From a virus (taxonomy: Duplodnaviria; Caudoviricetes): a stretch of 38,517 nucleotides of DNA. Below are positions 3,383 through 34,372 of the stretch, in pieces. The DNA is taken from IMG/VR virus record IMGVR_UViG_3300037692_000242, positions 1 to 38,517 of that record. One strand, given 5' to 3'. Position numbers and translations under genes: made by a program. Below the pieces are notes generated by a model. That model ran no database searches, was not told the DNA's origin, and saw nothing but the letters and a program-made list of their open reading frames with translations. Each line of letters starts with the position of its first letter. Positions within the stretch are counted from its first letter, which is position 1.

Positions 3383-3784
3383 GTGATAAAGTTTTGTCCG
3401 GGATGCGGAAAGGATCGGCCTGTCGAAGAGTTCTGGAGTCATAGCGGCAAAAAGGATGGTTTGCAGTCTCGTTGTATCGAGTGCAACGGGACGATGCGGA
3501 GGGTCGACCGCGGCTTGCCGGCGGACAACGAGACAATGAGGACAAGTTGTTGGGGGCTGGAAAAGACGGAGGGGTATATCAAGGTCAAGGTGAAATGCTG
3601 GTCTGCCCGTGAGGGGTGTCCCGGGGAGCGGGACTTCATTATTGCTGAGGGTGACAAGACGCCCCGTTATGTCTGTTCCTCCTGCAACGAAAGCGGATAT
3701 GAGCGGGGCATCAGAATGTCGGACGCTCTGGTCAGGGTCATCAACAAAGAACTTTTGCGGGAAGGGCACAGCGATGGAGTTTAA
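3383..3784 (+). CDS. Zinc-finger protein (HNH-associated-type N-terminal finger)
   Basis: KFCPGCGKDRPVEEF...DGLQSRCIEC plus a second Cys cluster; AGGAGG RBS, GTG start. Confidence 0.75.
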   Translation: MIKFCPGCGKDRPVEEFWSHSGKKDGLQSRCIECNGTMRRVDRGLPADNETMRTSCWGLEKTEGYIKVKVKCWSAREGCPGERDFIIAEGDKTPRYVCSSCNESGYERGIRMSDALVRVINKELLREGHSDGV

Positions 3785-4025
3785 CACCAAGGAGGGGGAC
3801 AAGGCTGTCCACGCCCACGACAACGACTGGCTGCAGCCTTCGGCCAATCCCTTCGGACACGGCTGCTGTGATTGTGGTCTTTATCACCAGGTCACGTATC
3901 GGATCGTTGACAAGAAAGGCCGGGAGATTAAAGGCGCCGTGCTGCAAATGCGGTGGTCTCACGATCGGGTAGAGACCGCCAGGCTTAAACACCACATGTT
4001 GGGGGAAACTGCCAAAAAAGATTGA
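3774..4025 (+). CDS. Hypothetical phage protein with CCDCGLxH motif (83 aa)
   Basis: Start at ATG 3774 overlaps the upstream gene end; GCCDCGLYH metal-binding motif. Confidence 0.7.
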   Translation: MEFNTKEGDKAVHAHDNDWLQPSANPFGHGCCDCGLYHQVTYRIVDKKGREIKGAVLQMRWSHDRVETARLKHHMLGETAKKD

Positions 4026-4688: not shown

Positions 4689-6153
4689 GGGCAACGCGAG
4701 AATACGCCAATGGCGCGAGTACCCGGCTCAGTTTGTTGCCGACAATTTCCACATTGAACCGGACGCATGGCAGGTGGATGCTCTCAATGCTCTCGGAGGC
4801 GGATACAATCCCGTTCGGCGCGTCGGGCTTAAAGCATGTACTGGACCTGGCAAAAGTGCTCTCCTGGCATGGGCCGGCTGGCAGCGGTTATCTTGTTTCG
4901 CGAAGAACGGCGAACACCCGAAGGGTGCGGCCCTGTCTATTACCCGGGAGAATTTGAAAGACAACCTGTGGACGGAACTGTCGAAGTGGCGGGACCGGTC
5001 AGACTTCCTCAAAAAAGCCTTCGAGGTTACCAAGGAGCGAATCTATGCTTTCGACCATCCCGACACGTGGTTCCTCTCTGCTCGGTCTTTCAGCAAGGAC
5101 GCTGATGCTGATGCTATTGGTCGAGCTCTGTCTGGTCTTCACAGTCAGTTCCCGTTCCTTCTCCTCGACGAAACAGGTGACATGCCCACCCAAGTTCTTC
5201 GGACTGCCGAGCAAATCTTCACTGGCTCTCCTACCGACGCCCTTATCCTCGCCGCCGGCAACCCGACCAGCACTAACGGCCTGCTTTATCATATTTGCAC
5301 CAGTGGGCGCAGCAGCTTCCTCGTCATCACGGTCACAGCGGACCCGGACGACCCGAAGAGAACGCCGCGCGTCAGCAAAGAACTCGCCCGGCAGCAGATT
5401 GAAGACCATGGGAGAGACAATCCCTGGGTCATGGCGACGATCCTTGGACTCTTTCCGAAGGTTGGATTTAACAACCTGATCGGCATCGAGGACGTAGAGA
5501 AGGCCATGAAGCGGGTGTATCGTCCTGACGCCTATTCCTTCGCCGCCAAGATTCTCGGGGTCGATGTGGCCAGGGAAGGGAACGATCGCTCGACCATCTG
5601 CCCTCGACAAGGCTTGGTGGCCTTCAAGCCGAAGATCTTTCGTAATGCCAAGAGCAACGTTCTGGCCGGCCACGTCGCCATGGCTGAGGACAAGTGGGAA
5701 GCGGACGGGGTGATTGTCGACGGGACAGGCGGCTACGGGTCTGGAGTCATTGACGCCTATGACACCATGGGGCGGGTGGCTTTCGACTGCCAGTTCGCCG
5801 GCAAACCGTTTCGGGCCAAGTTTGTCAACAAACGGGCTGAAATTCTCTGGGATTTCTGCGAGTGGACCAAAAACGGCGGGGCCTTGCCGTACCTGCCGGA
5901 GTTGATCAAGGAAATGACGGCGGTGACCTACACGTTCCGAGGCGACAAGATTCTGGTTGAGCCCAAAGAACAGGTCAAGTCGAAGATCGGTGTGTCTCCT
6001 GACCTCATGGACGGGTACGCTGTGACCTTCGCCTTTCCTATTCATCCGAGACCCCGCAGCGGGAACAGAGAGGTCGGCATCGGTCTCTTTCCTTCCGGTC
6101 TGGCGCCGAAGAAAACCGGAGACTATAACCCTCTTGAGGAGTATTCACGATGA
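4681..6153 (+). CDS. terL: Terminase large subunit
   Basis: Walker A-like TGPGKS, Walker B LLLDE, GNPT coupling motif, nuclease GVDVAREGND and SPDLMD; ATG 4681. Confidence 0.95.
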   Translation: MSKGNARIRQWREYPAQFVADNFHIEPDAWQVDALNALGGGYNPVRRVGLKACTGPGKSALLAWAGWQRLSCFAKNGEHPKGAALSITRENLKDNLWTELSKWRDRSDFLKKAFEVTKERIYAFDHPDTWFLSARSFSKDADADAIGRALSGLHSQFPFLLLDETGDMPTQVLRTAEQIFTGSPTDALILAAGNPTSTNGLLYHICTSGRSSFLVITVTADPDDPKRTPRVSKELARQQIEDHGRDNPWVMATILGLFPKVGFNNLIGIEDVEKAMKRVYRPDAYSFAAKILGVDVAREGNDRSTICPRQGLVAFKPKIFRNAKSNVLAGHVAMAEDKWEADGVIVDGTGGYGSGVIDAYDTMGRVAFDCQFAGKPFRAKFVNKRAEILWDFCEWTKNGGALPYLPELIKEMTAVTYTFRGDKILVEPKEQVKSKIGVSPDLMDGYAVTFAFPIHPRPRSGNREVGIGLFPSGLAPKKTGDYNPLEEYSR

Positions 6154-6365
6154 AAAAAGCAACGGCCTTTATTACCTGTTTCGGCGGTCCCAAGCCCCCG
6201 GCTGTGACGCCGCAACTTCCCCCTCCCACAGCGCAGGATGATGCGGTCACCAGTTCGCGGGACAACGAGAGACGACGGCGCAGGGCTGCAGCCTCGAATA
6301 CCGTTTTGACCTCTGGCGACGCAGCGCCGGCAGCGACTCAAACGAAGACCCTGCTCGGGCAATAG
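6150..6365 (+). CDS. Small virion protein preceding the portal, with AFIT leader
   Basis: CFGGPKPP...RRRRAA..TVLT...KTLLGQ is typical of the small pre-portal protein of T7/BPP-1-like podoviruses; ATGA overlap with terL. Confidence 0.85.
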   Translation: MKKATAFITCFGGPKPPAVTPQLPPPTAQDDAVTSSRDNERRRRRAAASNTVLTSGDAAPAATQTKTLLGQ

Positions 6366-6373
6366 GAGACGCC

Positions 6374-8080
6374 ATGTTCGGAGGCCTGATTGAACAAATG
6401 AAACAGCGGAAGTCGGCCCTGAAGAACGAGAGGTCGAGCTTCGACCCCCACTGGAAGGAGATCTCCGACTTGATTTCTGTCCGGACGAGCCGCTTTTTCC
6501 GTGAAGACAGAAACAAGGGGTCCCGGGTCAATACCAAAATTGTCAACGAGACGGCTGTCCTGGCCCACAGGACGCTTGAGTCCGGGATGATGGCCGGTAT
6601 GTCCTCCCCGGCGCGGCCTTGGTTCACGCTCAATCCTCCGGACCCTGGAATGCAAAAGTTTCAGCCGGTCAAGGAATGGCTCTCCGTTGTCAACAAACTG
6701 ATGCTCGAGCATTTCGGGCGGTCCAATATCTACTCGGTCCTGCCGAAGACCTACAGCGATATCGGCGGGTACGGAACGGCGGCGTTCGGGATTGTTGATG
6801 ACGAAGACGACGTGTTTCGCTGCTATCCGTTTTCGATTGGCTCCTATTGCTTGGATTGCAACGACAGGATGCTGGTTGACACCTGTCACCGTGAGTTTTC
6901 GATGACCTGTCAGCAACTGATCCAGCGGTTCGGCAGGAAGACGGCCAGCGGCCTGCCCGACTGGTCGACCTTCTCCCCGGCGGTCAAGAATGCTTACGAC
7001 ACCGGGAAATACGGGACATGGTTTGGGACCAATCATGCCGTCGAACCCAATCCGGATTGGAACCCGAAGAGCGCTCACAGCCGGGACAAGCGGTATCGAT
7101 CAATCTATTACGAAGAAGGGGACACCAAATCCGCCCTGTCGCAGATGGGCTATGACGACTTTCCCATTATCGCCTCCCGCTGGCACGTCAACGGCGAAGA
7201 CGTTTATGGAAGCCGATCCCCGGCCATGGACGCGCTCGGTGTTGTCAAGGGGGTCAACCTGGAGGAACGGCGGAAGTACCAGGTTATCGACAAAATCTGG
7301 AACCCGAGCATGAATGCCGACTCGACCCTGAGAAACAGCGGTGCCGACCTGCTCCCCGGAGGGCTCAACTGGATTCCGGGCATGGCGTCCGCCGGCAACC
7401 CGGGACTGCGACCGACCCACGTCATTGACCCGGTGGCCGTCACCGTCCTGGCGCAGGATATTGAAAAGCTCGAAAGCCGGATTCGGGCGCTCTTCTATGC
7501 CGACCTGATGCTGATGCTGGCCACCAGCGAGAATTCGCAGATGACGGCGCGGGAAGTCGAGGAGCGGCACAGCGAAAAACTTCTGGTCCTTGGTCCTATG
7601 CTCGAGCAGCAAAACGATGATACGTTCGACCCGCTGATCGACGTGACGTTCAACAAGATGCTGGCCCGGGGGCTCTTCCCACCTCCTCCGGAAGAAATCC
7701 AGGGGGCAAAGCTTCGGGTCGAATACACCTCCACCATGGCGCAGGCGCAGAAACTGATTGGCGTCTCCGCCCTGGAGCGGTTCGCCGGATTCGTCGGGAA
7801 CCTGTCGGGGTTCAGTCCCACAGCCCTCGACAAATTCGACATGGACGAGGCCATCGACGACTACGGCATCATGACCGGCGTCAATCCCAAGATTGTCCGC
7901 TCGGCGGAAAGCGTCATTGAAATCCGCAACGCCCGGGCCGAAGCCCTCAAGGCTCAAGAGTCGGCAGAGCGTATGCCGGCCATGGTTCAAGGGGCGCAGG
8001 CAGCAAAGACCATGGCGGAGATCCCCACCGGGGGGGATAACGCCCTGACGGCCATGTTGAGCCGACTGCAGGGAGGATAG
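6374..8080 (+). CDS. Portal (head-tail connector) protein
   Basis: SPARPWF, RW...GEDVYG.SP, MTAREVEERHSEKLLVLGP motifs of the T7 gp8/BPP-1 portal family; 568 aa. Confidence 0.95.
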   Translation: MFGGLIEQMKQRKSALKNERSSFDPHWKEISDLISVRTSRFFREDRNKGSRVNTKIVNETAVLAHRTLESGMMAGMSSPARPWFTLNPPDPGMQKFQPVKEWLSVVNKLMLEHFGRSNIYSVLPKTYSDIGGYGTAAFGIVDDEDDVFRCYPFSIGSYCLDCNDRMLVDTCHREFSMTCQQLIQRFGRKTASGLPDWSTFSPAVKNAYDTGKYGTWFGTNHAVEPNPDWNPKSAHSRDKRYRSIYYEEGDTKSALSQMGYDDFPIIASRWHVNGEDVYGSRSPAMDALGVVKGVNLEERRKYQVIDKIWNPSMNADSTLRNSGADLLPGGLNWIPGMASAGNPGLRPTHVIDPVAVTVLAQDIEKLESRIRALFYADLMLMLATSENSQMTAREVEERHSEKLLVLGPMLEQQNDDTFDPLIDVTFNKMLARGLFPPPPEEIQGAKLRVEYTSTMAQAQKLIGVSALERFAGFVGNLSGFSPTALDKFDMDEAIDDYGIMTGVNPKIVRSAESVIEIRNARAEALKAQESAERMPAMVQGAQAAKTMAEIPTGGDNALTAMLSRLQGG

Positions 8081-8081
8081 C

Positions 8082-8375
8082 GTGGCCAAGGTCTCCAAGG
8101 AGCGCAAAATAGAAATATCTGACCTGCTGGAAGTCATGGCGACTCCGGCGGGGCGCCGGTTCGTCTGGCGACAACTCGAAATTGCCGGGGTCTATCTGGC
8201 CTGCTACACACCGGAAGCAGAAGGAGGGCGCAGGATCGGTCTTCTTCTCCTGGCGGATTTGGTCAGTGAATGCCCTCGGGAGTATCTGGCCATGCAGTCG
8301 GAGCAGATGAATCAGACCACCCGGGAGCGGATTGAAAAGGAAGCCAACAAGGAAAGGGAAACCGATGAAGCGTAA
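8082..8375 (+). CDS. Bbp19-like phage protein
   Basis: DL..VM.TPAGRRFVW..L...G...EG.RRIGL.L motif; position between portal and scaffold. Confidence 0.8.
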   Translation: MAKVSKERKIEISDLLEVMATPAGRRFVWRQLEIAGVYLACYTPEAEGGRRIGLLLLADLVSECPREYLAMQSEQMNQTTRERIEKEANKERETDEA

Positions 8376-9105
8376 ATTTCTGAGAGTAAATGAGATTCAT
8401 TCCGGCGCCGCGTTCATTACGACGGAAGACGAGGGAGCCGGTAATTCTGACGAAGGCGGGGACGATCTGGCGACCCTCTTTTCCAAAGAGGACATTGAAG
8501 CCAAGCGCACGGCCATTACCGAATCCAAGGCCGAAGAGGACCGCCGTGCTGCCCTGACCGACGAGGAGCGTACCCTTGAGGACACGACCAGGGCCGAAGA
8601 GACCGCGGCCAAGGGGGTTCCCGAGAAGTACGACTTCAAAATCCCCGAAGGCACCACCATTGACGACGAAATCATGGGGGAAGTTTCTGCTTTTGCCAAA
8701 GAGAACAACCTGCCCATGAAGGAAGCGCAGCGCATCGCCGACCTTGGGGCGAAAATGCTTGTCAAACAGCAGGAATCCCGGATGGCCGAATACGAAACCA
8801 TCAAGGAGGGCTGGCTGACCTCGGCAAAGACCGACAAGGAAATCGGCGCCGACATTTCCAAGGGCAAAGACTCCATCGCGGCCCGGGCCTTCAATACCAT
8901 TGCCACCCCGGAGATGAAGGAGATGGTCGATCAGTATGGCATCGGCAATCACCCGGAAGTTCTCCGCATGTTTTACCGATTGGCGCCTTTCATGGCGGAC
9001 GACAAGATGCACATGCCCGGATCGGGCGCAGGGGCCGGTAGCTCTACTGGAGTGGAAAGCACTGTCGCAGGCATCTTTAATCATCCCAGCCGGAAACAGG
9101 GCTGA
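8365..9105 (+). CDS. Capsid scaffolding protein, with AFIT leader
   Basis: Acidic N-half, PEKYDFKIPEG, AKE.NL...AQ, GIGNHPEVLRMF motifs; directly upstream of the capsid gene. Confidence 0.88.
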   Translation: MKRKFLRVNEIHSGAAFITTEDEGAGNSDEGGDDLATLFSKEDIEAKRTAITESKAEEDRRAALTDEERTLEDTTRAEETAAKGVPEKYDFKIPEGTTIDDEIMGEVSAFAKENNLPMKEAQRIADLGAKMLVKQQESRMAEYETIKEGWLTSAKTDKEIGADISKGKDSIAARAFNTIATPEMKEMVDQYGIGNHPEVLRMFYRLAPFMADDKMHMPGSGAGAGSSTGVESTVAGIFNHPSRKQG

Positions 9106-9156
9106 TCGGCGCATCACCCAACGCAGTTTCCTATTAACCGAAGAAGGAGAAGCACC

Positions 9157-10284
9157 ATGAAACAGCTTTATCTCTGCATCCTGCTGTTCGTCGCCTCGGT
9201 TGCTGCCATGTTCCGGCAGGCAACCATCACCCGTTCCAGCGCGTTCATCACCACGGCGCTGCCTGACACCAATGCCACCCTGCTCGATTATGCGGCCATG
9301 TACCAGGCCGACCCTGCCACCAAGGGCGTCGGCGACTTCATCATGCTGGCAGCGGAGCAGAACGAAATTCTCGACGACCTCGTTATGCAGGAGTGCAACG
9401 ACGGCACGAAGCACAAGAGCGTCATCATCCCCGGCCTGCCGGAGCCGACCTTCCGCAAGCTCTATGGTTTCGTTCAGCCCTCCCGCGTTCAGGGTATCCC
9501 AATCTCCGACAACTGCGCCATGCTGGAAGACTATCTCCAGACCGACAAGGCTGTCGCCGACCTGAACAACAACTCGGCGCGTTTCCAGATGTCCCAGGCG
9601 CGGGGCATCACCGAAGGGTTCAACAAGAAGATTGCCTCCAGCCTCTTCTATTCCAACGAGGCTACCCAGCCGGAAGCCTTCACCGGCATGGCTCCCCGCT
9701 TCAATGATCTCTCCGCGGCCAACGGCGGGAACATCATCGATGCCCTCGCCGGGGCCGGCGTCGCCGCCGAGCTCCTGCACTCCTCGATCTACATTGTCAA
9801 CTGGGGAGATTTCCAGGTTCACGGGATTTTCCCCAAAGGCTCCAAAGCCGGCCTTCAGATCAACGACAAGGGTCAGGTCACCGTCCAGGACACCACGGCG
9901 GCTGACGGCATGGGCGGGGGCCTGATGGAGGCTTACCGAACCCACTTCCGGTGGGACATCGGACTGGCCGTTCCCGACTGGCGCCACGTCGTGCGAATCG
10001 CCAACATCAAGACCTCCGCCCTGACCAAAAATGCCGGCTCCGGCGCCGACATCATCGACCTGATCACCCAGGGCCTGGAGATGATTCATTCCACCGGGGG
10101 GCGTCCGGCTATTTACTGCAGCCGTGCGGTCCGTTCCTTCCTCCGCCGGCAGATCGCCAACAAGATCGCCGCGTCGACCCTGACGATGGAGGATGTGGCC
10201 GGCAAGCGTGTCGTCGCCTTCGACGGCATCCCGGTTCGTCGGTGTGACGCCCTGATCAACACCGAAGCCGGCCTCGAGGCATAA
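9157..10284 (+). CDS. Major capsid protein (BPP-1/epsilon15-like), with N-terminal leader
   Basis: NEILDD...ECNDGTKH...GLP.PTFRKLY, FTGMAPRFN, GIFPKGSKAGL, YRTHFRWDIGL.V.DWR.VVRIANI, FDGIPVRRCDA. Confidence 0.95.
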   Translation: MKQLYLCILLFVASVAAMFRQATITRSSAFITTALPDTNATLLDYAAMYQADPATKGVGDFIMLAAEQNEILDDLVMQECNDGTKHKSVIIPGLPEPTFRKLYGFVQPSRVQGIPISDNCAMLEDYLQTDKAVADLNNNSARFQMSQARGITEGFNKKIASSLFYSNEATQPEAFTGMAPRFNDLSAANGGNIIDALAGAGVAAELLHSSIYIVNWGDFQVHGIFPKGSKAGLQINDKGQVTVQDTTAADGMGGGLMEAYRTHFRWDIGLAVPDWRHVVRIANIKTSALTKNAGSGADIIDLITQGLEMIHSTGGRPAIYCSRAVRSFLRRQIANKIAASTLTMEDVAGKRVVAFDGIPVRRCDALINTEAGLEA

Positions 10285-10290
10285 CCGAAC

Positions 10291-10318
10291 GGGGGGAGGT
10301 TGCTCTCCCCCCTTCTTT
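10291..10318 (+). terminator. Stem-loop after the capsid gene (partial terminator or stabiliser)
   Basis: GGGGGGAG-gttgct-CTCCCCCC followed by TTCTTT. Confidence 0.6.
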
Positions 10319-10345
10319 CCCCAATTCTTTTCAAGGAGACGGCTC

Positions 10346-10828
10346 ATGAAATATCTCGTTCGGAAGGCTCAAGCCTTTATCACCGCGATTCTGGATCTCC
10401 GGTCCACCTTCGCCTCCGCCACCTCGGTTGCCGCCACCGCCGGGACCGCCATTCTCGGCAACGTCATGCCCCTGGACACCACGGGGTTCAATCTCGGGCA
10501 GGCCATGCAGCGCGTCTACCTCGTCATCGCCGTGACGACCGGGCTCGATTCGGCCGGCGGGGCCGCGACCCTGGCATTCAAGCTGATGAGCCATTCGACG
10601 GAAACCATCACCTCGGGTGTGACCCATGTTCAGACCGCGGCCTTTACCGAAGCTCAGGCCGTCGCCGGAACCGTGTTGCACTGCCAGCCTCTCCCCCAGG
10701 GGACCTATGGAAAGTACCTCGGCCTGGCCTTTACCCTCGCCGGGGAGACCTCCACTGTCGGTGCCGTCAACGCCTACCTGACCCTCGATCCTCCGCAGGG
10801 CTGGAAAGCCTACCCCAACGCGGTCTAA
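10346..10828 (+). CDS. Capsid cement/decoration protein (Bbp16-like), with AFIT leader
   Basis: ILD....F, beta-rich, LP.G..GKYLGL.FT, G.VNAYLT.D...WKAYP; follows the capsid gene. Confidence 0.85.
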   Translation: MKYLVRKAQAFITAILDLRSTFASATSVAATAGTAILGNVMPLDTTGFNLGQAMQRVYLVIAVTTGLDSAGGAATLAFKLMSHSTETITSGVTHVQTAAFTEAQAVAGTVLHCQPLPQGTYGKYLGLAFTLAGETSTVGAVNAYLTLDPPQGWKAYPNAV

Positions 10829-10844
10829 CCGCATAACCTGAGAA

Positions 10845-10871
10845 GGGGAGGCTCCATTACGGAGCTTCCCC
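10845..10871 (+). other. Intergenic stem-loop
   Basis: GGGGAGGCTCC-attac-GGAGCTTCCCC between the cement gene and the next gene; no long U tract. Confidence 0.55.
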
Positions 10872-10890
10872 GCTCTTCACGGAGGAACAG

Positions 10891-11196
10891 ATGGCAACCG
10901 GAAAGATTCGCAGGAACGTGATCGTCTTCATGAACGGCTCCCTCCAGAAGGTCGACCTGGACGAAGCCGGAAGGGTTGTCCCGAAAGGGGAGGTCAAGGA
11001 GAAGGTCAAGGACGAGGACAAAAACCCGACGAAGCAGGAGCTCATGGCCGAGTTGAAGAAGCGCGGGATCTCCTTCAAGGCGACCCTCGGCAACGCCGCC
11101 CTGACGGAAATTCTCGAGGCCGACGATAAAGCCAAAGAGGAACCCCCAAAGGGAGAAGAGAACCCCGGCGGCACCGGCAACCAGGACGTTATTTGA
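10891..11196 (+). CDS. Small head-region protein with helix-extension-helix-like motif
   Basis: GGAGG RBS; PTKQELMAELKKRGISFKATLGNAALTEIL resembles HeH/LEM-type motifs. Confidence 0.75.
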   Translation: MATGKIRRNVIVFMNGSLQKVDLDEAGRVVPKGEVKEKVKDEDKNPTKQELMAELKKRGISFKATLGNAALTEILEADDKAKEEPPKGEENPGGTGNQDVI

Positions 11197-11207
11197 ATGA
11201 TTGAAGC

Positions 11208-11237
11208 CAAGGCAGAAGCTGCCTTCTGCCTTGTTTT
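11208..11237 (+). terminator. Rho-independent terminator
   Basis: CAAGGCAGAAG-ctgc-CTTCTGCCTTG followed by TTTT. Confidence 0.7.
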
Positions 11238-11252
11238 GAGCCATTCCATCCC

Positions 11253-11612
11253 ATGACGGAGCAGATTATGACAGGGACCGCCGACAAGATGGACAGGCTC
11301 CAAGAGATTATGGACTCCCTGCCTTCATCCAATAGACCCGGACCGGAACAGAGGAAGAATGCTCTGACGAAACGGGATGTATTGGTCATTTACAACATCG
11401 CCAAAATTGCCAACGAACCGCACATCTGCCCCTTCAAGGGCGAAGACATCAGCGTTTTAACCAATGTGGCCACGAATATTACCCGGACACAGAAGCTCGT
11501 CGCCGTAACCCTCATTGTTGGATCTCTTGGGGCGATAGGCCGGGGGCTCTGGCTGGTGGTCACCTATGCGGTCAGACAATACATCGCCAACGGCGGCGTC
11601 AACATTCAATAG
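11253..11612 (+). CDS. Hypothetical protein with C-terminal transmembrane segment
   Basis: LVAVTLIVGSLGAIGRGLWLVVTYAV hydrophobic stretch; fills the gap before tail tube A; weak RBS, start uncertain. Confidence 0.65.
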   Translation: MTEQIMTGTADKMDRLQEIMDSLPSSNRPGPEQRKNALTKRDVLVIYNIAKIANEPHICPFKGEDISVLTNVATNITRTQKLVAVTLIVGSLGAIGRGLWLVVTYAVRQYIANGGVNIQ

Positions 11613-11620
11613 GGGGTTCC

Positions 11621-12247
11621 ATGGCCAGAAGCAACGAGGCAATTTGTAATGTCGCCCTGCAGCGAGTCGGGGTAACCGCCACCATCGACCGGCTGGATCA
11701 GCGGATCAAAGAGGCCATGGTGTGCAATCAGGTCTTCGAAATGACCAGGAGAAAAGTCCTGGAGGAGACGCCTTTTCCCTTCTCCCGGAAATTCTCTCTG
11801 CTGGCGCAGTCAGGTTCGACGCCTTTGAAATGGCGGTATCGCTACGTCTATCCCAACGACTGCCTGCATATCCGGGCCATCTTTCCCAACATCGGGGGAG
11901 GATACGATCCGTCGATTCTCCGCCGGGTTGCCCGGGAGCGCAGTCATCCCTACGAACTGGCTCTCGACGCCACGGACGAGAAGACCATTCTCACCGACAT
12001 TGAAAATGCAATCATCGAATACACCGTCGATATCGCCAATCCGTCCCGGTTTACCTCCGCCTTTGATTCGATGTTTGCCTGGGCTTTGGCCGGGGAGATT
12101 GCCCTGCCCCTGTCGACAGACGTGAAGTTTGCCTCCAACGCCTTCGGGATGTACGAGACGGAGAAAAACAGGGTCCATGCTACGGCTCTGAACGAAGAGC
12201 ACAGCGAAGATTCGCCTGAATCCGAATTCATCACCGTTCGCAACTAG
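11621..12247 (+). CDS. Tail tubular protein A (T7 gp11-like adaptor)
   Basis: ICNVAL..VG, EA..CN..F...R..VL...PF.F, W.Y.Y.YP.DCL, F...F..ALA.EIA.PL motifs. Confidence 0.88.
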   Translation: MARSNEAICNVALQRVGVTATIDRLDQRIKEAMVCNQVFEMTRRKVLEETPFPFSRKFSLLAQSGSTPLKWRYRYVYPNDCLHIRAIFPNIGGGYDPSILRRVARERSHPYELALDATDEKTILTDIENAIIEYTVDIANPSRFTSAFDSMFAWALAGEIALPLSTDVKFASNAFGMYETEKNRVHATALNEEHSEDSPESEFITVRN

Positions 12248-12256
12248 GAGCTTCCC

Positions 12257-15076
12257 ATGCCCGAAATCCCACAAACCAGCATGGCGGCAGGCGAAGTCAC
12301 CCCGGCTATGTACGGCAGGGTCGACCTGGCCAGGTACTTCATCGGCCTGCGTACCTGCCTGAATTGGATGGTCCGACAGACCGGCGGCGTCACCAACCGC
12401 TCGGGGTTCCGTTATGTCGGTTCGACAAAACTGGTTGGCACCATGGCGCGGCTGATCGACTTCAAGGTTTCCTCCACCGAAGCATATGTCATCGAGTTGG
12501 GCGAATATTACATGCGCTTTTACTACCGCGGGGGGCTTGTCCGGTACGATCTGGATGCCCTGACGACGTGGACTTTGCCCTCTTCGTGGGTTGTCGGTGA
12601 CATTGTAAAGGATAACGGGTCTATCTATCGGTGCATTTTGGACCACACGAACACCGACCTCAGTTTTTATTTCCCCGACGACCCCACCTATTGGCTGGAA
12701 ATCGAAGACATCGCCGAAGTCATCACGCCATGGCCGGCGGCAGACCTCCGGGGTTTGGATTACACCCAAAGCGCCGACGTGATGACCTTCTGCCATCCAA
12801 ACCACAAACAGCGCCAGTTGGGGCGCTACAGCCACATTGATTGGCGCCTGTCTGTCTTCGGCAATGTCGGCGGTCCGTTCGGGGATCTCAACCTGAACAC
12901 GCTCAACACCATTGTCGCCACCAACATGACCGGAGTGGTGACGCTAACCTCTCCGGAAAACATTTTCACGGCGGACATGGTGGACCGCTACATTCAGATC
13001 GAGCAGAACCCGGAAGCCCTGACGCCGCGGTGGGAGGTGGCCAAGGCCATTCTTGCCAATGCCATTTACAAAACGAACTCCGGGTACTACAAGGCTATTG
13101 CCGCCGGCACCACGGGAACGGTTCGGCCCGACCACCTGGAGGGCATCGGGTACGACGGCAGTCCCGGGGTGGCCTGGCAGTACCTGCACAACGGAGTCGG
13201 CATCGCTCTGATCACCGCCTACGTTTCTCCCACGGAAGTGACAGCTACCGTTCAGGACTACATTCCCGAGTCCGTCGTCAATGCCTCTATCCCTCGCACG
13301 ATCACCGACATGGAACCGGGCGCCCCGGAAGTGACAGGCGAGTTTCCAGCCCCAGCCGAAAATGTTCTGGTGACCGTCCTCTCTCACGGCTATCTGGACG
13401 GCAGCAACGTCACCCTTTCCGGAGTCACAGGGATTACCGGGGCCAATGGGACCTGGGCAATTTCCGTCAAGAGCAGCGACACCTTCGAACTGATCGGCTG
13501 CATAGCTGAGGGAACATGGGGAGGCGCTGGTGTCGTAACGCGAACCCTGGTGGCCAGCCCGACCTATAAGTGGTCCCTTGAGGAATGGGGAGGGACGCGG
13601 GGCTTTCCCGCCACCAGCACATATTACCAACAGCGTCAAATCTTTGGCGGAGCGCCGGGAAGACCGCAGGCCGTCCAGATGTCGAAGACCGCCGGGTTTC
13701 TCGACTTCGGCAAGAACATTCCCATGCTCGATGACGATGCCATCGACTTCTCCCTCAACGCCGGAACAATCGGACACATTCTCCATTTCGTCAACCTCAA
13801 GAACCTGATCGCCCTCACCACGGAAGGCCCGTGGATGATCATCAAGGAACAGGGCAACCCCATTCCCATCACCGACCCCCAGGGGGAAGGCGGATCCGCC
13901 ACAGTGCGACCGTTGAAAATCAACAAGCAGGCGCTCTACGTCGAGGACAAGGGGGGCGCGATTCGTTCCCTCGGCTACGAGTTCTCTTCCGATACCTACG
14001 AGGGGAAGGATTTGACGGTTACCGCCGATCATCTCTTCGAGGGGCACAGCATCGTCGAGTGGTGCTTTCAGAAGATCCCGAATCACGTCGTCTGGATGGT
14101 TCGGGACGACGGGGTGCTGATCGGCCTGACCTACTTGGTCGAGCAGGAAGTCGTTGCTTGGCACCGGCACACCACCGATGGGCTCTTCGAGTCGATTTCC
14201 TGCGTCACGGAGCCGACCGAAGACGCCGTGTATGCCGTGGTCCGACGCAACATCAACGGCAGCGACGTGAGATATGTCGAAAAGCTCAACACTCGGATTT
14301 TCCCGACACCGGAAGATGAATTTATCGTCGACTCCGGCCTGACCTATGACGGCAGAAACGCAGGCGCCGGGATCGGATTTATGCTGTCAACCCTCACCGG
14401 AGGATGGACCTACCAAGACACCCTGAACATCGAAACCAATACGGCGGTTTTCACCGGGGTGTCGGATGTCGGGGATGCCGTCGTACTGACCGACGACGAA
14501 GGGGATTTACTGCGCCTGACCATCATCGAATATGTTTCCCCGACGCAGGTCAATGTCCTGGCCAACCGGACGGTTCCGGTAGAGTGTCAGACCGGGACCG
14601 GGTTTGACCTGGCTCGGGATACTTTCACCAACCTTGGCCACCTGGAGGGGAAGACGGTCTCCATCCTGGCCGACGCCAAGGTTGCACCCTCGGCAGTGGT
14701 GACCGCAGGCGTCGTCACCATTCCAAATGCGGCGGTTGTCGTGCATATCGGGTTGCCGATTGTCGCCGACATCGAAACGCTTGAAATCAACACCCCGGGG
14801 ACCACCTTTCAGGGCAAGCCGAAAAACGTCAACTCGGTCAGCCTGATGGTTCAGGATACGAGGGGGCTGCTTGTCGGGCCAACACCGGAGAACCTGCTTG
14901 AGACGAGGGTGGAAATCAGTTCCAAATTCGATGCTCTCTACCAGCACACCACGGGCATTTTGCCGGTGAACATCATCAGCGACTGGAGCAAGGGCGGAAG
15001 GGTTCTGATCCGGCAACAGGAGCCGCTTGCGGCAACGATTCTGGCCATCATCCCCAACGTCACGATGCCGTCATGA
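12257..15076 (+). CDS. Tail tubular protein B (T7 gp12-like nozzle)
   Basis: S.AAGEVTP.MYGRVDL..Y, GG...R.G, YTQSADV, GFP....YQQR.IFG, EQEV.AWHRH.T.G, VDSGL.Y, HLEGKTV; 939 aa. Confidence 0.92.
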   Translation: MPEIPQTSMAAGEVTPAMYGRVDLARYFIGLRTCLNWMVRQTGGVTNRSGFRYVGSTKLVGTMARLIDFKVSSTEAYVIELGEYYMRFYYRGGLVRYDLDALTTWTLPSSWVVGDIVKDNGSIYRCILDHTNTDLSFYFPDDPTYWLEIEDIAEVITPWPAADLRGLDYTQSADVMTFCHPNHKQRQLGRYSHIDWRLSVFGNVGGPFGDLNLNTLNTIVATNMTGVVTLTSPENIFTADMVDRYIQIEQNPEALTPRWEVAKAILANAIYKTNSGYYKAIAAGTTGTVRPDHLEGIGYDGSPGVAWQYLHNGVGIALITAYVSPTEVTATVQDYIPESVVNASIPRTITDMEPGAPEVTGEFPAPAENVLVTVLSHGYLDGSNVTLSGVTGITGANGTWAISVKSSDTFELIGCIAEGTWGGAGVVTRTLVASPTYKWSLEEWGGTRGFPATSTYYQQRQIFGGAPGRPQAVQMSKTAGFLDFGKNIPMLDDDAIDFSLNAGTIGHILHFVNLKNLIALTTEGPWMIIKEQGNPIPITDPQGEGGSATVRPLKINKQALYVEDKGGAIRSLGYEFSSDTYEGKDLTVTADHLFEGHSIVEWCFQKIPNHVVWMVRDDGVLIGLTYLVEQEVVAWHRHTTDGLFESISCVTEPTEDAVYAVVRRNINGSDVRYVEKLNTRIFPTPEDEFIVDSGLTYDGRNAGAGIGFMLSTLTGGWTYQDTLNIETNTAVFTGVSDVGDAVVLTDDEGDLLRLTIIEYVSPTQVNVLANRTVPVECQTGTGFDLARDTFTNLGHLEGKTVSILADAKVAPSAVVTAGVVTIPNAAVVVHIGLPIVADIETLEINTPGTTFQGKPKNVNSVSLMVQDTRGLLVGPTPENLLETRVEISSKFDALYQHTTGILPVNIISDWSKGGRVLIRQQEPLAATILAIIPNVTMPS

Positions 15077-15978
15077 AAGCGACCATCGTCCCGGCGGAGG
15101 TCTGCCACATCGCCTTGATTGTCAAGGACATGAGGCAGGCCGACGTTGACGAGTTCGCATGCTTGGGCATGAAGCCTGAGACAGCCATGACCCTTTCCTT
15201 GAAAGACGCAACGGAAGCCTGGACAGGACTGATTGACGGCGTTCCGGTCTGCATGTTCGGCGTTTCCCCCTCTCATTTACTCACGCCTCTTCGGGGATAT
15301 CCGTGGATGATGGGAACGCACCACCTGGAACAACACGCTCCGCTTTTTTTGCGACGATGCAAAAAGCAGGTTTCCCGGATGCAGGAACTCTATCCCGTTC
15401 TGGAAAACTGGATTGCAAAATCGAATACGATTGCTGTAATGTGGCTGGAATGGTTGGGGTTTGAACTCCTGGAATCAAGACCTTTCGGCCCGTCCAATGC
15501 GATATTCATAAAATTCCGGAAGGAGGCGCCGATGAATTTGGCCAAGAAAGACGCATTCAAGCAGGGTATGGAGCAGACCGAAGCCTTCATGCTTCAGTGC
15601 GAACAGGTCCATTGCGAACCCGAACACCGCTTTGCCGAAGGTCTTTACTCCCGCACCCTGACCATGCCCAAAGACACCATTATCGCCTCCCGCGTTCACC
15701 TTCACGAAAATTTCGCTTTCATCATGAGAGGATCCTGCATTGTCGTCTCCGACGAAGGATCAACGGAATATCACGCGCCCTGCGCCCTGATCACCAAGAA
15801 GGGAACAAAGCGGCTTCTGCGAATCCTTGAGGAATGCACCTGGGTTACGGTTCACGCCATTCCCAAGGAACTCGGCGAGGACATCGAGAAGATCGAGGCA
15901 TATCTGGCAATCAACACCCTGGAAGAATACAAACAGGTCGAGCAGCAGAATCTTTTGGAGGGCAATCATGGAAGTTAA
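15073..15978 (+). CDS. Fusion of a GNAT-like (T7 gp13-like) domain and a cupin-like domain
   Basis: N-half MRQADVDE...P.CMFG...W...LENWI...N..A..WLEWLGF; C-half HRFAEGLYSR....PK.T....VH..E.......G...W.TVH. Internal AGGAGG-N5-ATG at 15532 is in frame. Confidence 0.8.
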   Translation: MKATIVPAEVCHIALIVKDMRQADVDEFACLGMKPETAMTLSLKDATEAWTGLIDGVPVCMFGVSPSHLLTPLRGYPWMMGTHHLEQHAPLFLRRCKKQVSRMQELYPVLENWIAKSNTIAVMWLEWLGFELLESRPFGPSNAIFIKFRKEAPMNLAKKDAFKQGMEQTEAFMLQCEQVHCEPEHRFAEGLYSRTLTMPKDTIIASRVHLHENFAFIMRGSCIVVSDEGSTEYHAPCALITKKGTKRLLRILEECTWVTVHAIPKELGEDIEKIEAYLAINTLEEYKQVEQQNLLEGNHGS

Positions 15979-16474
15979 GGAAGGCTCGGCTTTTATTACG
16001 ACCATGGCATATGTTGCAGTTATAACAGCCGTCATTACCGCGGCAGTCTCGACAACCGCCGCCTATCAACAGAGCGAATCCGCCCAGGACATGGCCGACT
16101 ACAACGCCGAAGTCGAAGACATGAAGGCCAAGGACGCGGCCAACGTCGGCGCCAATGCCGCCGGCGACGCTCGGGCCAAGGCGCGGAAGATCATCGCCGC
16201 CCAGGTCGAAGCCGGGGGAATGTCGGGAGTCGATACCAATTACGGAACGCCCATGGGTCTGCTGGTCGAAACAGCAGGGATCGGGGAGATGGAAGCCCTG
16301 ACGGTCATGAACAACGCGCAGAGACAGGCGTGGGGGCACCAGGCGCAGTCCAGCCTTGACACCCTGAAGAGCAAACAGGAAAAGCAGGCCGGCGTATTGA
16401 ACACAATGGGCACAGCACTCAGCGGCGCCTCAAGCGTTTACGGCGCAGGGCGTACAGCAGAACTCTGGAAATAG
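15968..16474 (+). CDS. Internal virion/ejection protein (T7 gp14-like), with AFIT leader
   Basis: Hydrophobic Ala-rich N-terminus, YNA.V, Q....G.SGVD...GTP, NNAQRQAWG; start at ATG 15968 with GGAGG RBS. Confidence 0.85.
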   Translation: MEVKEGSAFITTMAYVAVITAVITAAVSTTAAYQQSESAQDMADYNAEVEDMKAKDAANVGANAAGDARAKARKIIAAQVEAGGMSGVDTNYGTPMGLLVETAGIGEMEALTVMNNAQRQAWGHQAQSSLDTLKSKQEKQAGVLNTMGTALSGASSVYGAGRTAELWK

Positions 16475-16482
16475 GGGACATC

Positions 16483-18333
16483 ATGAGAATCGCCGCCGCA
16501 TTCATCACCGTCAACGTTCCCCGGATGGAGCAGACCACCAAGACACAGGCCGTCGCCATTCCGCGGGGGTCCGTCGGTCCGGATCGGTTCGCCGGCCTCG
16601 CCGCCGGGGTCAAACAGGCGTCCAATACCATCAGCCAGATTGCCACCAGGGAAGTCGCCGAACAGGACGCCTCCCGGCTGTCGAAAGCTCAGGCCGATTA
16701 TGAGGATGCCAAGGTCAAGTTCCTCTACGGCAGCAAGGACGAACAGGGTGAAACACCGGGCCTGTTGCACACCCTCGGTGAGGCCGCAGTCAATCCGGCG
16801 GACGGGAAGACTCTCGATGCCAAGGCCGAAGAATGGCACAGGAACTATCTCGACAATCAACTGGGAACCCTCGGAAACGACCGGCAAAAAGCCCTGTTCA
16901 CTCAGTACGCCGACCGGGACCGGGCTTCGGTCACCAGTGCCGTGGTCAACCATGAATGGAAGCAGGGCCAAATCGTCAAGATCGGCAACGCCAACGCGGC
17001 AACCGACCTGGCCACAACCAACGCCATCAAACTCGGCACCACGGCAGGGGCCGACCCGGAACTTTACGCCAACGCCTTGACCAAGGTCGAAGAAGCCACT
17101 CAGGTTCAGGCCATGATCGAAGGATTCAGCCCCGAATCCCAATATGCCAAAGACCTCCTTTCCTCCAAAATGTCCAAACTCCACAGCAACATCATCATCA
17201 GCAAGGTTTCCTCCGACGACGACAAGGGCGCCATCGCTTATTACGAGGAACACGGCGACACCATTACCGACCCTGCCGAGGCCCTGGCTATCGGCAAGAC
17301 GATCTCCACGCTGAAGATCAGGGTCGAGGGAAAAGAGACTGCGGCCGCGATTTGGGAGAAGCACAAACCGACCGATGTCAACGTCTCTGTCGATATCGCC
17401 GCCATGCGTGAAGAGGTCGCCGCCGGCAAGGGAGGAGAAGCCGAAAAGGCGGTGGCTCTGGCCCGGGTCGAAGAGATTGCCGCAGAGCATCAGCAGGCAA
17501 ATCGGCTCAAAGAAGAAAGTGCCTCGAACAAGATCTTCGGCATCGGGCGCAAGGAAGGCGCCACCTACGACGCAACGATCAAGGCGATTAACCTGGAGCC
17601 GAACATCGACAACCGAACCCGGGAGAGCCTGCAGAATTGGGCCGAGTCGAAGTTCAAAATCAATGAGGGTAAATCCGGGATTGATGCCGACAAGAAATAT
17701 GCCCAAAAGCTTGAACAACTCGGCAAGCTGCTTTCCTTCCAAAACGAATATCTCTCTGGCGGCTACGGAACTCTCACCCCGGAACAACTCGGAACGAAGG
17801 TGGGGGACCTCGGAGAGTTCACCGACAACGCCATGCAGTTCGTCGACAGGGTGAATACCGACCTCAACACCGCCAAAGTCGTCGATTCCGACCTCAAGGA
17901 TCTGCTTCACACCCTCGGGCAGAGCGACGCCTACAAGGATCTCGTCCCGAACATCGATAAGCCCAAACCCGAAGACAAGGCGAAGCTGGCCGTTCTCCAG
18001 GGGGAAGTGCAGCGGATCATGGTCACGTCTCAACAGGCCAGCGGCCCGGGAAAAGGAATGAGTCTCAAGGCGGCAACGCTCAAGGCCATCCAAAACGTGC
18101 GAACGGATAAGGGATGGGCCAAGGTCTTCGACAACGGCCAGCCGTTTTACCTGGTGGGAACCGACCTGGCGGACAAGTATTCCAAAGGGAACGACCCGTC
18201 GAAGTGGTCGAAGGAAACCCAGGCCAACTACATCAAGGCGCGGTGGGAAATGCTCCCGTCCAATCAGGGGAAGACCCTCGCTCCGGCAGAGCTCGAAGTC
18301 CTTCGCAACGCACTTCTGCAGACGGAGCAATAA
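16483..18333 (+). CDS. Internal virion/ejection protein (gp15-like position), with AFIT leader
   Basis: 616 aa, helical and Ala-rich; second of three ejection-protein genes. Confidence 0.8.
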   Translation: MRIAAAFITVNVPRMEQTTKTQAVAIPRGSVGPDRFAGLAAGVKQASNTISQIATREVAEQDASRLSKAQADYEDAKVKFLYGSKDEQGETPGLLHTLGEAAVNPADGKTLDAKAEEWHRNYLDNQLGTLGNDRQKALFTQYADRDRASVTSAVVNHEWKQGQIVKIGNANAATDLATTNAIKLGTTAGADPELYANALTKVEEATQVQAMIEGFSPESQYAKDLLSSKMSKLHSNIIISKVSSDDDKGAIAYYEEHGDTITDPAEALAIGKTISTLKIRVEGKETAAAIWEKHKPTDVNVSVDIAAMREEVAAGKGGEAEKAVALARVEEIAAEHQQANRLKEESASNKIFGIGRKEGATYDATIKAINLEPNIDNRTRESLQNWAESKFKINEGKSGIDADKKYAQKLEQLGKLLSFQNEYLSGGYGTLTPEQLGTKVGDLGEFTDNAMQFVDRVNTDLNTAKVVDSDLKDLLHTLGQSDAYKDLVPNIDKPKPEDKAKLAVLQGEVQRIMVTSQQASGPGKGMSLKAATLKAIQNVRTDKGWAKVFDNGQPFYLVGTDLADKYSKGNDPSKWSKETQANYIKARWEMLPSNQGKTLAPAELEVLRNALLQTEQ

Positions 18334-21300: not shown

Positions 21301-24300
21301 GAGAACAAAGGCCAAATTTCCATCAACCGGATCCAGTTTCCTAAAGAGCAACAAGGTCAGGGGAACGGGTCTGTCGTGATGATCGCCCTCACGGAATATG
21401 CCGACGCAACAGGTCAAGTTATCACGTTGACTCCCTCTTCCGATTTCGGGGGGACAAAAAGCAGGGTCGTCTCCTTCAATAAGCGTTTTGGTTTTGTCGA
21501 GAACAAGGGCAAAAATAAAGACTTTGCAATCTCCGACACGATGTATCGCCTGCCGAAAAAAGAAAAGGATCGAACTCTTTTCCAAGGAGGGTCCGCCGAA
21601 GGGCACGAAACCTTCTCCGTCAGGAAAACCCAGGAAGAGGGGATGCTGCTCACGGCGACCGTCACCGATGGCGTGACCAAGGTTTCAGGCATCGGCGCCA
21701 CCCACTACGATGCCAGCACCACGATGAAGGCAACACTTCCCGAAGGGCTGACCAACGGGACCGGATTCGTCACCCCGGACGGAATCTTTCTCCGGCGCAA
21801 GGAAGCCGTTCAGTGGCTCAAGGAAAATCGAAATGATGCCTATCGGGCACTCGACAAGATCACCCGCACCAACGGGCTGGAGTCCCAGGCTTATGCCTTT
21901 GCCGAAGGCGTCGTAACGGGCATCGACAACAGCATTGAGGACTTTATCCGGCAGCAGTTCGGCACGGATGCGAGGACTCTTTTTCAGTCTCAACCTCTCG
22001 ACAAAATATCCTTTGACACTTCCGGTGAATTTGAAACCGGGAGAGAAGTCACATTCAACTTCGTTCACAACACAGCGTCTGCAACAAAGATTTTTGGAAA
22101 GCCGAAAAAGGATTCTCCGCACGACCGCAGTCTTGAACCGTCCGGGCGGTACGTCACCAAAGTTGATAAGGCGGCGAAGGATCTCCCTGCCGGCATGATT
22201 GGAGGAGAAATTACCTTTCGCAACCCGATTGTCCTGAAGGGAGAGAATTGGAAAAAAGAACTCTCCTCTCAATTCGGCAACAAGACCGGCAAGAGGTTGA
22301 GCCTGGCGATAATCGAGGCAGGTTTCGACGGAGTAGTCACGACTTCTGAAAGCAAAAGCGGAAGGTACGTGTCTGAGATCCTCGACCTGACGACCTTCGA
22401 CGAAGCCAAGGCCCTTTACCAAAGCGGCAGACCTTCGTGGGTCGACGCTGCCAAGGAAATAACTGAGGAGCGACGGGCGGAGTTTGCAGCGGCGGCGATA
22501 AAGTTTTTCGGAAAAACCACAAACCCGTACGAGGCGGGATATGTCCTACCGAACGGAACCATGCTTGACCTGTCGGGTCGTCATTATTCTCAGGATCACC
22601 CTTCTCTGCGAGGGCAAAGATCTGTGGACCACCGGGAACTCATGGGGGAAAACAGTGACGAGTTTTCCATTGAGGAGTTTTTCCCGGATGGGTTAAGCGG
22701 CAGCGACAGCATGGCGTATTTCATGGCGGCAACCGGGGCAATGCGAATCGATATTCGCTCCGGTGTCGCTTCGTCCATGGGGTCTCCCTCACAGAAACAA
22801 ATAACCGTTTTGGGAAATGCGCTGAAGGGAGAGGATGCAACGATCAGCCTTGTCAATCCCGAAACCGGGAAGATTGTGGATGAAGGGGAAATAGACAACG
22901 CGAATCCGAGGAAGATAAAAGCATTTTTCGAAGCCGCCGCCGCCAAGCCGGACGGATTTTCCTACTTCCAAGGGAAGGGTAACGCTGGCAAGCGCGGGTA
23001 CATTCGCTTCGGCGGTTCCCTGGAAGGATTCGAAATCGGCCTGCTCAAAGACGCCAACCCGTCGACCTTTATCCATGAGCTCGGGCATTACTACATGGAG
23101 ATTTTAGGCGACCTTGCCCAGGACGAGGGGGCTCCTGATGCTCTCAAGGCCGACTACGCCACCCTGCTGAAATGGGTGGGGGCCAAGGACCGCGCTTCGT
23201 TGTCCGTCGAGCAACTTGAGCAGATCGCCCGGGGCTATGAGGCATACCACTGGGAAGGCAAGGCGCCATCCGAAAAGCTCAGGGCCGTCTTCGCTCGGAT
23301 TTCCGTCTGGTTCAAGGCGGTTTACAGGACGCTCAAGGAACTCAATGTCGAGCTGACCCCGGAAGTCCGGGACGTTTTCGACCGGCTGCTGGCCACCGAC
23401 GAAGAAATAGCCCAGGCAAAGCAGAACGCAAAGCCTCTTTACGCGACCGCCGCGGACGCCGGCATGACGCCGACCGTCTTTGCCGCCTATCAAAAACTTG
23501 CCGAGCATGCGCAGGCCGACGCCGCAAGCCGGCTGGACGTGGCCAAGATGCGCGATTTCCTCCGGGAACAGCAACAGTGGTGGAAGGATGCCCGGGACGC
23601 CATGCAGGAACAAATCGAGAAGGAGGCAGAAGGCAATCCCGTCTACCAACTGCTTCACCTGATCTACAACGGGGAACTCTTCGACGGTTCGCCCTACGAG
23701 GGGGGGCAGTCGCGGCTCTCCGGGACCCTGCTCAAAGAACAAATCGACCCGAAAAAGATGAAGATTTTGCGGAAGAAACTCGGGAACGTCTACGTCAACG
23801 AGGGAGGTATCGATCCGCAACTGGCGTCCGAGCAGTTCGGGTTTTCTTCCGTCGACGAGATGGTGGAAAGACTGCTCTCCGAGCCGAAGATGAAGGCATG
23901 GGTCAAGGAGGAGACCGACAGGCGGATGGAGGAGCAGCACGGGCACATGGACCCGATGAAGATTGCCCAGGAAGCCCTCTCTGCCGTCCACAACGATTAC
24001 GAGGCGACCCTTCTCCGTGAAGAGCTCAAGGCCATCAACAAGAAGCGGCGGGAGGTCAAGCCGTTCACCGACGCCGAGAAGAAGCAGGGCAAGGAAAATC
24101 TTCAGAATGAAAAAGCCCAGCGCAGGTATGAGCGACGGTGGATGGATGCCGAAGCCAAACTGAAAGTTGCCGAAGCCAAGGCTGCAGGCAAAGAAGAGAT
24201 CGACGCCCTCAAGGAAGAAATCCGCAGCAACAAAAAGCTGCAGATCGCCGCCAGAAATGTTGCCAAGGATCTCGTCCCTCCCATTGCCAGCTTCAAGAGT

Positions 24301-30319: not shown

Positions 30320-30483
30320 CAATCCCCCATTTCCCTGCACAGCTTCTTGTAAAAATTCTTTCTCGCCCGAAGAATGCTGATTTCCTTTTTGGCCTCGCAG
30401 TATTTGAACTGGTAGCTTGCCGCCGTGCTGACCATTCGTTTCAGCCTCCACGTCAAATCCTTGATCTCCTCGTCTTTGGTCAT
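30319..30483 (-). CDS. Small hypothetical protein (54 aa; not in ORF track)
   Basis: MTKDEEIKDLTWRLKRMVSTAASYQFKYCEAKKEISILRARKNFYKKLCREMGD*; ATGA overlap with the upstream nuclease gene and AGGAG RBS. Confidence 0.65.
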   Translation of the reverse strand: MTKDEEIKDLTWRLKRMVSTAASYQFKYCEAKKEISILRARKNFYKKLCREMGD

Positions 30484-31779: not shown

Positions 31780-31797
31780 GATAATCTCCCTGGTAAT

Positions 31798-32895: not shown

Positions 32896-32914
32896 CTACA
32901 TTTCCTCCTGAAAT

Positions 32915-33817: not shown

Positions 33818-33978
33818 TTGCCCTCCTTGACCAGCGCGTCGGCCTTGGTGTTGACCCTCTTTGCAAAAACTTCGAGGCTGTCACCCTTCCGCACCTTGCA
33901 CTCCTCGGACAAAGGGCAGGTGGTACGGCATCCCCTCAAAATGTGGTCGTTGCAAAACTCTCTGGCGTTTCCGTTCAT
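33814..33978 (-). CDS. Small Cys-containing protein (54 aa; not in ORF track)
   Basis: MNGNAREFCNDHILRGCRTTCPLSEECKVRKGDSLEVFAKRVNTKADALVKEGK*; ATGA overlaps at both ends. Confidence 0.7.
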   Translation of the reverse strand: MNGNAREFCNDHILRGCRTTCPLSEECKVRKGDSLEVFAKRVNTKADALVKEGK

Positions 33979-34289: not shown

Positions 34290-34330
34290 AGCGTAATCCT
34301 TTCCGTAAAAGTTTGTGCAGACGATGCCTG

Positions 34331-34359: not shown

Positions 34360-34372
34360 GGTAATTATTTCC

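Follow-up and report, generated by a model that had tools for sequence, protein, structure and literature searches.

The stretch of DNA analysed here, called the window throughout, is a 38,517-nucleotide sequence of a tailed phage from sediment (positions 1 to 38,517 of IMG/VR record IMGVR_UViG_3300037692_000242, a 38.5-kb virus record with an estimated completeness of 91%). PHROGs assignments identify a BPP-1-like head, tail and ejection module in it, and the subject of this analysis is a four-residue tag, A-F-I-T, which ends the N-terminal leaders of six virion proteins, together with a small protein encoded in the window that may read or cut it. A six-frame scan for A-F-I-T gave six matches in total, all on the + strand, at 6165, 8410, 9241, 10373, 15989 and 16498, the same six that an earlier sequence-only reading had picked out. 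The tags lie 5, 15, 28, 9, 7 and 5 residues respectively from an ATG, and each ATG has a ribosome-binding-like sequence. The leaders and the small protein are as follows.

6150..6176, + strand: leader and tag (6165-6176) of a small Pro-rich virion protein (gene 6150-6365, phrog_831); next residue Cys.
8365..8421, + strand: leader and tag (8410-8421) of the scaffold-position protein (gene 8365-9105, phrog_458); next residue Thr.
9157..9252, + strand: 32-residue leader with tag (9241-9252) of the major capsid protein (gene 9157-10284, PF20911, phrog_212, major head), hydrophobic in its first half; next residue Thr.
10346..10384, + strand: leader and tag (10373-10384) of the cement protein (gene 10346-10828, phrog_427); next residue Ala.
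15968..16000, + strand: leader and tag (15989-16000) of a T7 gp14-like ejection protein (gene 15968-16474, phrog_418, internal virion); next residue Thr.
16483..16509, + strand: leader and tag (16498-16509) of the second ejection protein (gene 16483-18333, phrog_10475); next residue Val.
3774..4025, + strand: an 83-residue C-C-D-C-G-L-x-H protein, hereafter the CCDC protein, a candidate reader or cutter of the tag on grounds of co-occurrence, a gene fusion, a structure model and a complex prediction.

A chance origin of the six occurrences is excluded. The motif falls within the first 35 residues of 6 of 44 window genes (delimited by hand, one of them in the wrong frame) against an expectation of 0.017, and in 5000 shuffles the largest number of genes sharing any 4-mer was four. 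The window's portal protein and both tail tubes are without the motif, as the earlier reading had maintained, and so are Bbp19, the acetyltransferase and the large ejection protein. Nor are the tagged genes an assembly artefact, since close variants of the scaffold-to-cement region occur in four other sediment or soil runs, whose contigs cover 8300-10480 nearly fully in pieces of ~95% identity or more. Among the 40 of 134 strain differences that were listed the scaffold leader has two and the tags have none, numbers too small to use.

The earlier reading had proposed looking for the same motif in related phages. Ten other podophages carry it, in the consensus form A-[F/I/V]-[I/L/V]-T, on these six genes, and an unrelated siphophage (G402) has it on the scaffold alone. 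Two of the podophages are Desulfuromonadia prophages, one (L175) in the Desulfuromonadales genome G001 and the other in G202 of the same class; further tagged viral contigs were located through the CCDC gene, the terminase or the portal. The 15 closest full-length capsid proteins (67-100% identical, excluding a truncated sixteenth sequence) all begin with a leader that closes with a related motif. When tags were tabulated automatically for 11 podophages, the window included, 44 were recorded, all on these six genes and none on the portal, Bbp19, tail tubes, acetyltransferase or large ejection protein; three more were seen by eye, on the small proteins of G404 and G405 and on the G403 scaffold, where the third residue is Arg. 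Among the 44, position 1 is Ala in 43 and Thr in one; position 2 is Ile (21), Phe (14), Val (8) or Leu (1); position 3 is Ile (25), Leu (12), Val (4), Ser (2) or Met (1); and position 4 is Thr throughout, a residue that was required by the search and hence defines the class. The residue two places upstream of the tag is Gly or Ala in 36 of 44, and the leader upstream of the tag runs from 3 to ~30 residues. The tag codons differ among the six window genes, as the earlier reading had noted, and over all phages the four Ala codons and the four Thr codons are each used within tags, which upholds the earlier claim that selection acts on the peptide.

The tag has a limited distribution. In 401 Desulfuromonadia genomes two of the ten prophages of this capsid family have it, order-level searches revealed no further tagged prophages and the 16 loci taken from elsewhere in the phylum were all untagged. 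In the portal tree the window groups among Desulfuromonadia prophages, which makes this the likely host class of the window phage. The tagged portals form one clade (6 rows of 43; Shimodaira-Hasegawa-like approximate likelihood ratio test support 100), whereas the tagged capsid proteins fall into three lineages of a 76-row tree, and a single clade of tagged capsids was rejected by the approximately unbiased test (p=8.9e-5; 46 of the 76 rows, after 30 long-branch or redundant rows had been dropped). These were quick LG+G4 trees with no bootstrap. The contrast of one portal clade with three capsid lineages shows that the tag was kept, or re-attached, while capsid bodies were exchanged.

The register of the tag bears on what it does. 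Of 119 capsid proteins examined 109 have a conserved anchor motif and 10 lack it. In all 87 untagged proteins a Met stands 12 residues upstream of the anchor Asp, and in 14 of the 15 tagged ones that position is occupied by the Thr of the tag, the exception having a 1-residue deletion; in the seven with a second, hydrophobic type of leader it is Gly (7/7). The small protein has a Met before its N-terminal Cys in 20 of 28 distinct sequences and a Thr there in tagged copies, while in the gp14-like protein a tagged Thr-Cys corresponds to Met-Cys in 13 of 84 relatives, most of which are without that Cys. The alignments and the capsid register confirm that the leaders are extensions relative to homologues that start about where the motif ends. 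Methionine aminopeptidase exposes small residues, and the residue after the tag is small as well (T 27, C 10, A 4, S 2, V 1 among the 44, although the search admitted small residues only); in the capsid alignment, to which no such restriction applied, it is again small, Thr or Asn. Since the last residue of the tag takes the place of the starting Met of tag-free relatives, the leader is probably removed, and given the small residue that follows, a cut after the Thr would restore the usual mature N-terminus. That the leaders are cleaved after the tag Thr, by whichever enzyme, is judged probable from these comparisons.

The second leader type is long and hydrophobic and ends in Gly at the capsid Met position; it occurs in L024, L068, L143, L159, L178, L183, L187, L275, L313, P0019, P0022, P0030, P0038, P0042, P0049 and P0094, in some phages also on the cement, scaffold or small protein. 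These Gly-ended leaders are spread across the capsid tree, with 10 changes, and across diverse hosts, and are found on the cement of the tagged G001 and G405. The scaffolds of L434 and L436-L452 begin with a basic and hydrophobic stretch followed by an acidic Gly/Ala-rich region, possibly a third leader type confined to the scaffold.

BPP-1- and T7-like podophages are not known to undergo proteolytic maturation during assembly. The capsid (Bbp17) and cement (Bbp16) of BPP-1, which shares its capsid family (PF20911) and gene module with the window, are described as uncleaved in the text available (PMC3863775), and most relatives start at Met without a leader. According to the same source the BPP-1 capsid N-terminus lies on the outer surface and pairs with cement, and the N-terminal loop of the cement touches two capsid subunits (PMC3863775). 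In the available portion of a preprint on a second BPP-1-like structure (10.64898/2026.02.16.706137) neither 'cleav' nor 'protease' occurs. A tag on an outer decoration protein speaks against both head-targeting and a protease confined to the prohead. The earlier reading had suggested leader processing or head-targeting: a removable leader is what the register favours, and head-targeting fits poorly with cement and capsid N-termini that lie outside the shell. PHROGs gave no prohead-protease family for 41 window proteins, nor did Pfam for 20 window proteins or for a set of 54 from G404, G405 and the window, and the sole hint of a protease in these family scans is a 'protease' label on the scaffold family phrog_458.

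It had also been proposed that a gene co-occurring with the motif be sought, and one emerged that was not among the candidates then named. Of the non-structural genes only the CCDC gene at 3774-4025 is common to the window and the two tagged prophages while being absent from seven other prophages. An all-against-all comparison found it in 6/6 tagged podophages and in the tagged siphophage, and in 0/8 loci with the hydrophobic leader, 0/3 with the scaffold-only type and 0/53 untagged loci. It is also present in L428, a tagged phage located through its portal; in all, the eight tagged phages with enough sequence have it. A profile of the protein run against the 401 Desulfuromonadia genomes matched only the two with tagged prophages, a third match containing stop codons. 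The gene has been retained although its position and its neighbours, the small terminase included, differ from phage to phage. In P0154 the CCDC domain is fused directly ahead of a second ejection protein (47% identical to the G001 copy), and at the junction a tag-like V-L-R-T stands in register at residues 89-92; no further fusion was found in 2175 candidates of 359-1145 residues.

Across 118 members of the CCDC family Cys31 and Cys34 never vary, and Cys32, Asp33, Leu36 and His38 hardly do; with its motif the protein, which has no family or fold match, likely binds zinc. The structure model has a mean confidence (predicted local distance difference test, pLDDT) of 89.6. Its best structural match, to a bacteriocin, has Z 3.3 (root-mean-square deviation 1.4, 38 aligned); against PDB, representative chains and BFVD there was no match and no Foldseek hit at E<=0.001, from which neither novelty nor absence follows, and in Atlas it matches only unnamed viral clusters. 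A complex prediction of the CCDC protein with zinc and residues 1-32 of the small protein scored 0.58 against 0.07 for the best control (run agreement at least 81%, partner pLDDT at least 53), which lends weak support. The close CCDC proteins P0124, P0131, P0135, P0136, P0140, P0148 and P0150 carry a C-terminal extension with a short Ile-Ile-rich tail that is loosely tag-like. Another close homologue, P0122, comes from Geobacter sp. SVR.

The explanation that we prefer, at a probability of roughly 37%, is that a protease cuts the tag after its Thr and thereby frees six virion proteins from their leaders, with the 83-residue CCDC protein as reader or cutter; it is placed slightly ahead of a host peptidase acting alone. 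The cut would give the N-termini that relatives obtain by losing their first methionine. It would take place in the cytoplasm and not inside a prohead, given that cement is an outer decoration, and the proteins would probably be incompetent for assembly until the leader was removed. The CCDC protein could itself be a small zinc or cysteine peptidase, or an adaptor presenting the leader to a host peptidase. The most far-reaching version, that this widespread, fold-less, zinc-binding family includes a new miniature phage peptidase or leader-recognition module that recognises a private four-residue code and takes the place of methionine excision in licensing capsid, cement, scaffold and ejection proteins for assembly, outside any prohead, is put forward as a rather unlikely conjecture. 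The tag itself is a real, lineage-wide feature; its part in a form of leader-dependent virion maturation is a proposal.

Should the tag be cut, assembly would be gated by a soluble protease step that covers the outer decoration protein and so goes beyond any prohead-protease model. A lineage that infects Geobacter-group bacteria carries the same tag on as many as six unrelated virion proteins and has retained it through capsid-gene swaps; identifying the cutter would point either to an unknown host processing activity, much as 80alpha revealed Prp, or to what a large, uncharacterised family of phage proteins does, the first role assigned to it. This reading makes a sharp prediction: mature N-termini should begin right after the tag Thr.

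Several observations weigh against this explanation. The set of tagged genes differs among phages: cement, tagged in 7 of the 11, has no tag in G001, G404, G405 and L427, and the first ejection protein has none in G202. For cement only 18 of 158 relatives have their Met where the tag Thr stands, 131 starting one residue downstream. As all tagged podophages belong to one portal clade, the co-occurrence of the CCDC gene with the tag may reflect shared ancestry, and G402, G403, G404 and G405 were first located through the CCDC gene. The control loci are mostly flanks and not whole genomes, with 10 kb upstream in 13 of 71 untagged loci of one comparison. The wider CCDC family is large (527 representatives), and in 49 loci with distant members there was no tag on recognisable virion genes and, by a crude test of low sensitivity, no other shared leader. 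The gene lies outside the morphogenesis cluster and its product is small for a protease. The P0154 fusion is a single 3.9-kb contig. A caveat must also be applied to the complex prediction: of 157 solved pairs 116 reached the mark used, as did 2 of 215 mismatches, and passes at 0.60 or under comprise 18 solved pairs and both mismatches. Unless the pairing was likely beforehand, a score of 0.58 that passes is wrong more often than it is right.

The register applies equally to a cut after the Thr by a peptidase of the Desulfuromonadia host, either a signal-peptide-degrading oligopeptidase or a membrane peptidase, with the CCDC gene merely travelling with the lineage, and this alternative, though doubtful, has to be taken seriously. 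It has two precedents. The scaffold and capsid leaders of Staphylococcus phage 80alpha are cut by the host protease Prp (MEROPS C108), mimicking a long L27 leader (PMC9405229), and the analogy drawn in the sequence-only reading is apt: scaffold and capsid carry leaders with a shared terminal motif, as in the window, and in the available text on 80alpha the phage has no prohead protease and the cut gives an N-terminus like that of leaderless relatives (PMC9405229). The systems differ in that the 80alpha motif is L-Q-F/L-F before Ala (PMC9405229, in the part available), which the tag consensus does not match, and in that there are here up to six substrates, cement and ejection proteins among them, together with a phage-encoded candidate. 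The second precedent is gp7 of P22, from which the host M3 peptidase OpdA removes 20 N-terminal residues (PMC8402733). Like the tagged leaders this is the leader of a podovirus ejection protein outside any prohead-protease system, as the accessible text has it (PMC8402733), and podoviruses do have a precedent, the earlier reading having called T7/BPP-1-like ones not known for such maturation. Unlike them it is a single substrate, for which no shared motif is described in the text available, whereas here six proteins are concerned, shell and decoration included.

The host reading also agrees with the lack of a prohead-protease family in the window and in the scanned genes of G404 and G405, and with Gly-ended leaders that occur in the same register, in diverse hosts and in phages without the CCDC gene. 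A degenerate tag pattern gave 35 matches in G202 against 12 for a reversed control, in a partial search that used one ribosome-binding word and ATG starts only. Of the 30 that were read four are the prophage's own genes, ten are out of frame and the rest are signal-peptide-like or ordinary N-termini. The host matches being mostly signal-peptide-like is in keeping with such a peptidase; among the 30 read no L27-like extension or substrate was found. In the incomplete genome G001 L27 is short (an 85-residue open frame for a 79-position model), and there was no Prp (PF04327) hit, the controls being positive in 3 of 14. An M3 peptidase was found in four of five genomes, G202 and three with untagged prophages, and not in incomplete G001. 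The tag's restriction to two of ten Desulfuromonadia prophages of this capsid family also speaks against a purely host-borne activity, which leaves both the fusion and the retention of the CCDC gene unexplained.

One short motif that marks shell, scaffold and internal proteins for propeptide removal is known from T4 gp21 and likewise from phiKZ and SPN3US (PMC9026906, as far as the text available goes). In that system gp21 cuts after Glu inside the prohead, whereas here Thr is the last residue of the tag, cement, an outer protein, carries it and no prohead-protease family was detected. By analogy, then, the tag would work like 80alpha/Prp and P22 gp7/OpdA while belonging to neither, and it falls outside the T4 system. 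Literature searches yielded no description of a shared leader of this kind for this group of phages, most subscription papers lying outside the search.

It is unlikely that the tag stays uncut and serves as a binding handle, probably a short beta-strand, for a chaperone or assembly factor, possibly the CCDC protein, that holds or collects the proteins. Its alternating hydrophobic pattern is typical of a beta-strand, the weak complex prediction concerns binding and not cutting, and the exposed N-termini of uncleaved capsid and cement, as reported for BPP-1 in the text available (PMC3863775), could carry extensions. T4 moreover keeps targeting and processing separate within one propeptide (PMC9026906, from the part available). 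A handle would, however, have no need to end at the Met position in unrelated proteins or to precede small residues only, and a retained 32-residue hydrophobic leader would presumably coat the capsid just where capsid and cement N-termini interlock.

Very improbable is a cutter within the morphogenesis cluster itself, that is, one of the two domains listed below or the scaffold-position protein with its 'protease' label.

15532..15978, + strand: cupin domain, a candidate enzyme of the earlier reading, which does not track the tag.
23068..23088, + strand: HExxH motif in the 2846-residue ejection protein, found in prophages without the tag as well.

The HExxH motif is intact in the window and in the tagged prophages, and PHROGs does attach 'protease' to phrog_458. 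The region, named as a HELGH metallopeptidase domain in the earlier reading, is nevertheless present in 8 of 9 prophages, tagged or not, and the tagged siphophage has no large ejection protein; it was therefore rejected as a tag-specific enzyme. The same applies to the cupin, whose distribution is independent of the tag (missing in tagged G001, G202 and G403, present in untagged G132, L306 and L307). The scaffold matches no Pfam peptidase, and 47 of the 53 untagged loci contain it. Finally, initiation at or after the tag, for instance at its Ile codon, with an untranslated leader and the motif as a nucleotide signal, can be dismissed. A near-cognate start codon is frequent at the third position of the tag, but every Ala and Thr codon occurs, the third residue may be Ser or Arg, and no Met stands just after the tag in four of the six window proteins. 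Ribosome-binding matches in the window comprise 3-6 bases for the leader ATG, but 0-4 for the third tag codon and 0-3 for the fourth, so that downstream start codons, which the earlier reading had considered fatal to its case, were rejected.

Some further features of these genes deserve mention. The acetyltransferase-like internal virion gene and the cupin form one open frame with no stop (15073-15978), yet the cupin has its own ribosome-binding sequence and an ATG at 15532; the frame of L001 is fused too. The 2846-residue polyvalent ejection protein (18334-26874) consists of an N-terminal LPD22 domain, a variable middle and the HExxH region, and is untagged in the tagged phages checked. The G405 orthologue of the gp14-like ejection protein matches PF24072 below that family's cut-off. 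Genes for RecT, exonuclease VIII, a resolvase-like nuclease, a helix-turn-helix regulator and a replication initiator (30480-36811) point to a temperate lifestyle; no integrase was found among 41 window proteins scanned, in a linear record of which one end may be missing. A tag-like four-residue word occurs twice in the hydrophobic N-terminal stretch of the gp14-like protein (16016-16039), where it could provide additional sites for cutting or have arisen by chance in a helix rich in Ala, Val, Ile and Thr. In G001, G404 and G405 lysis genes and small open reading frames lie between the two small ejection genes (L175:16697-17700, also L370 and L372), an insertion hotspot that may explain the P0154 fusion as well.

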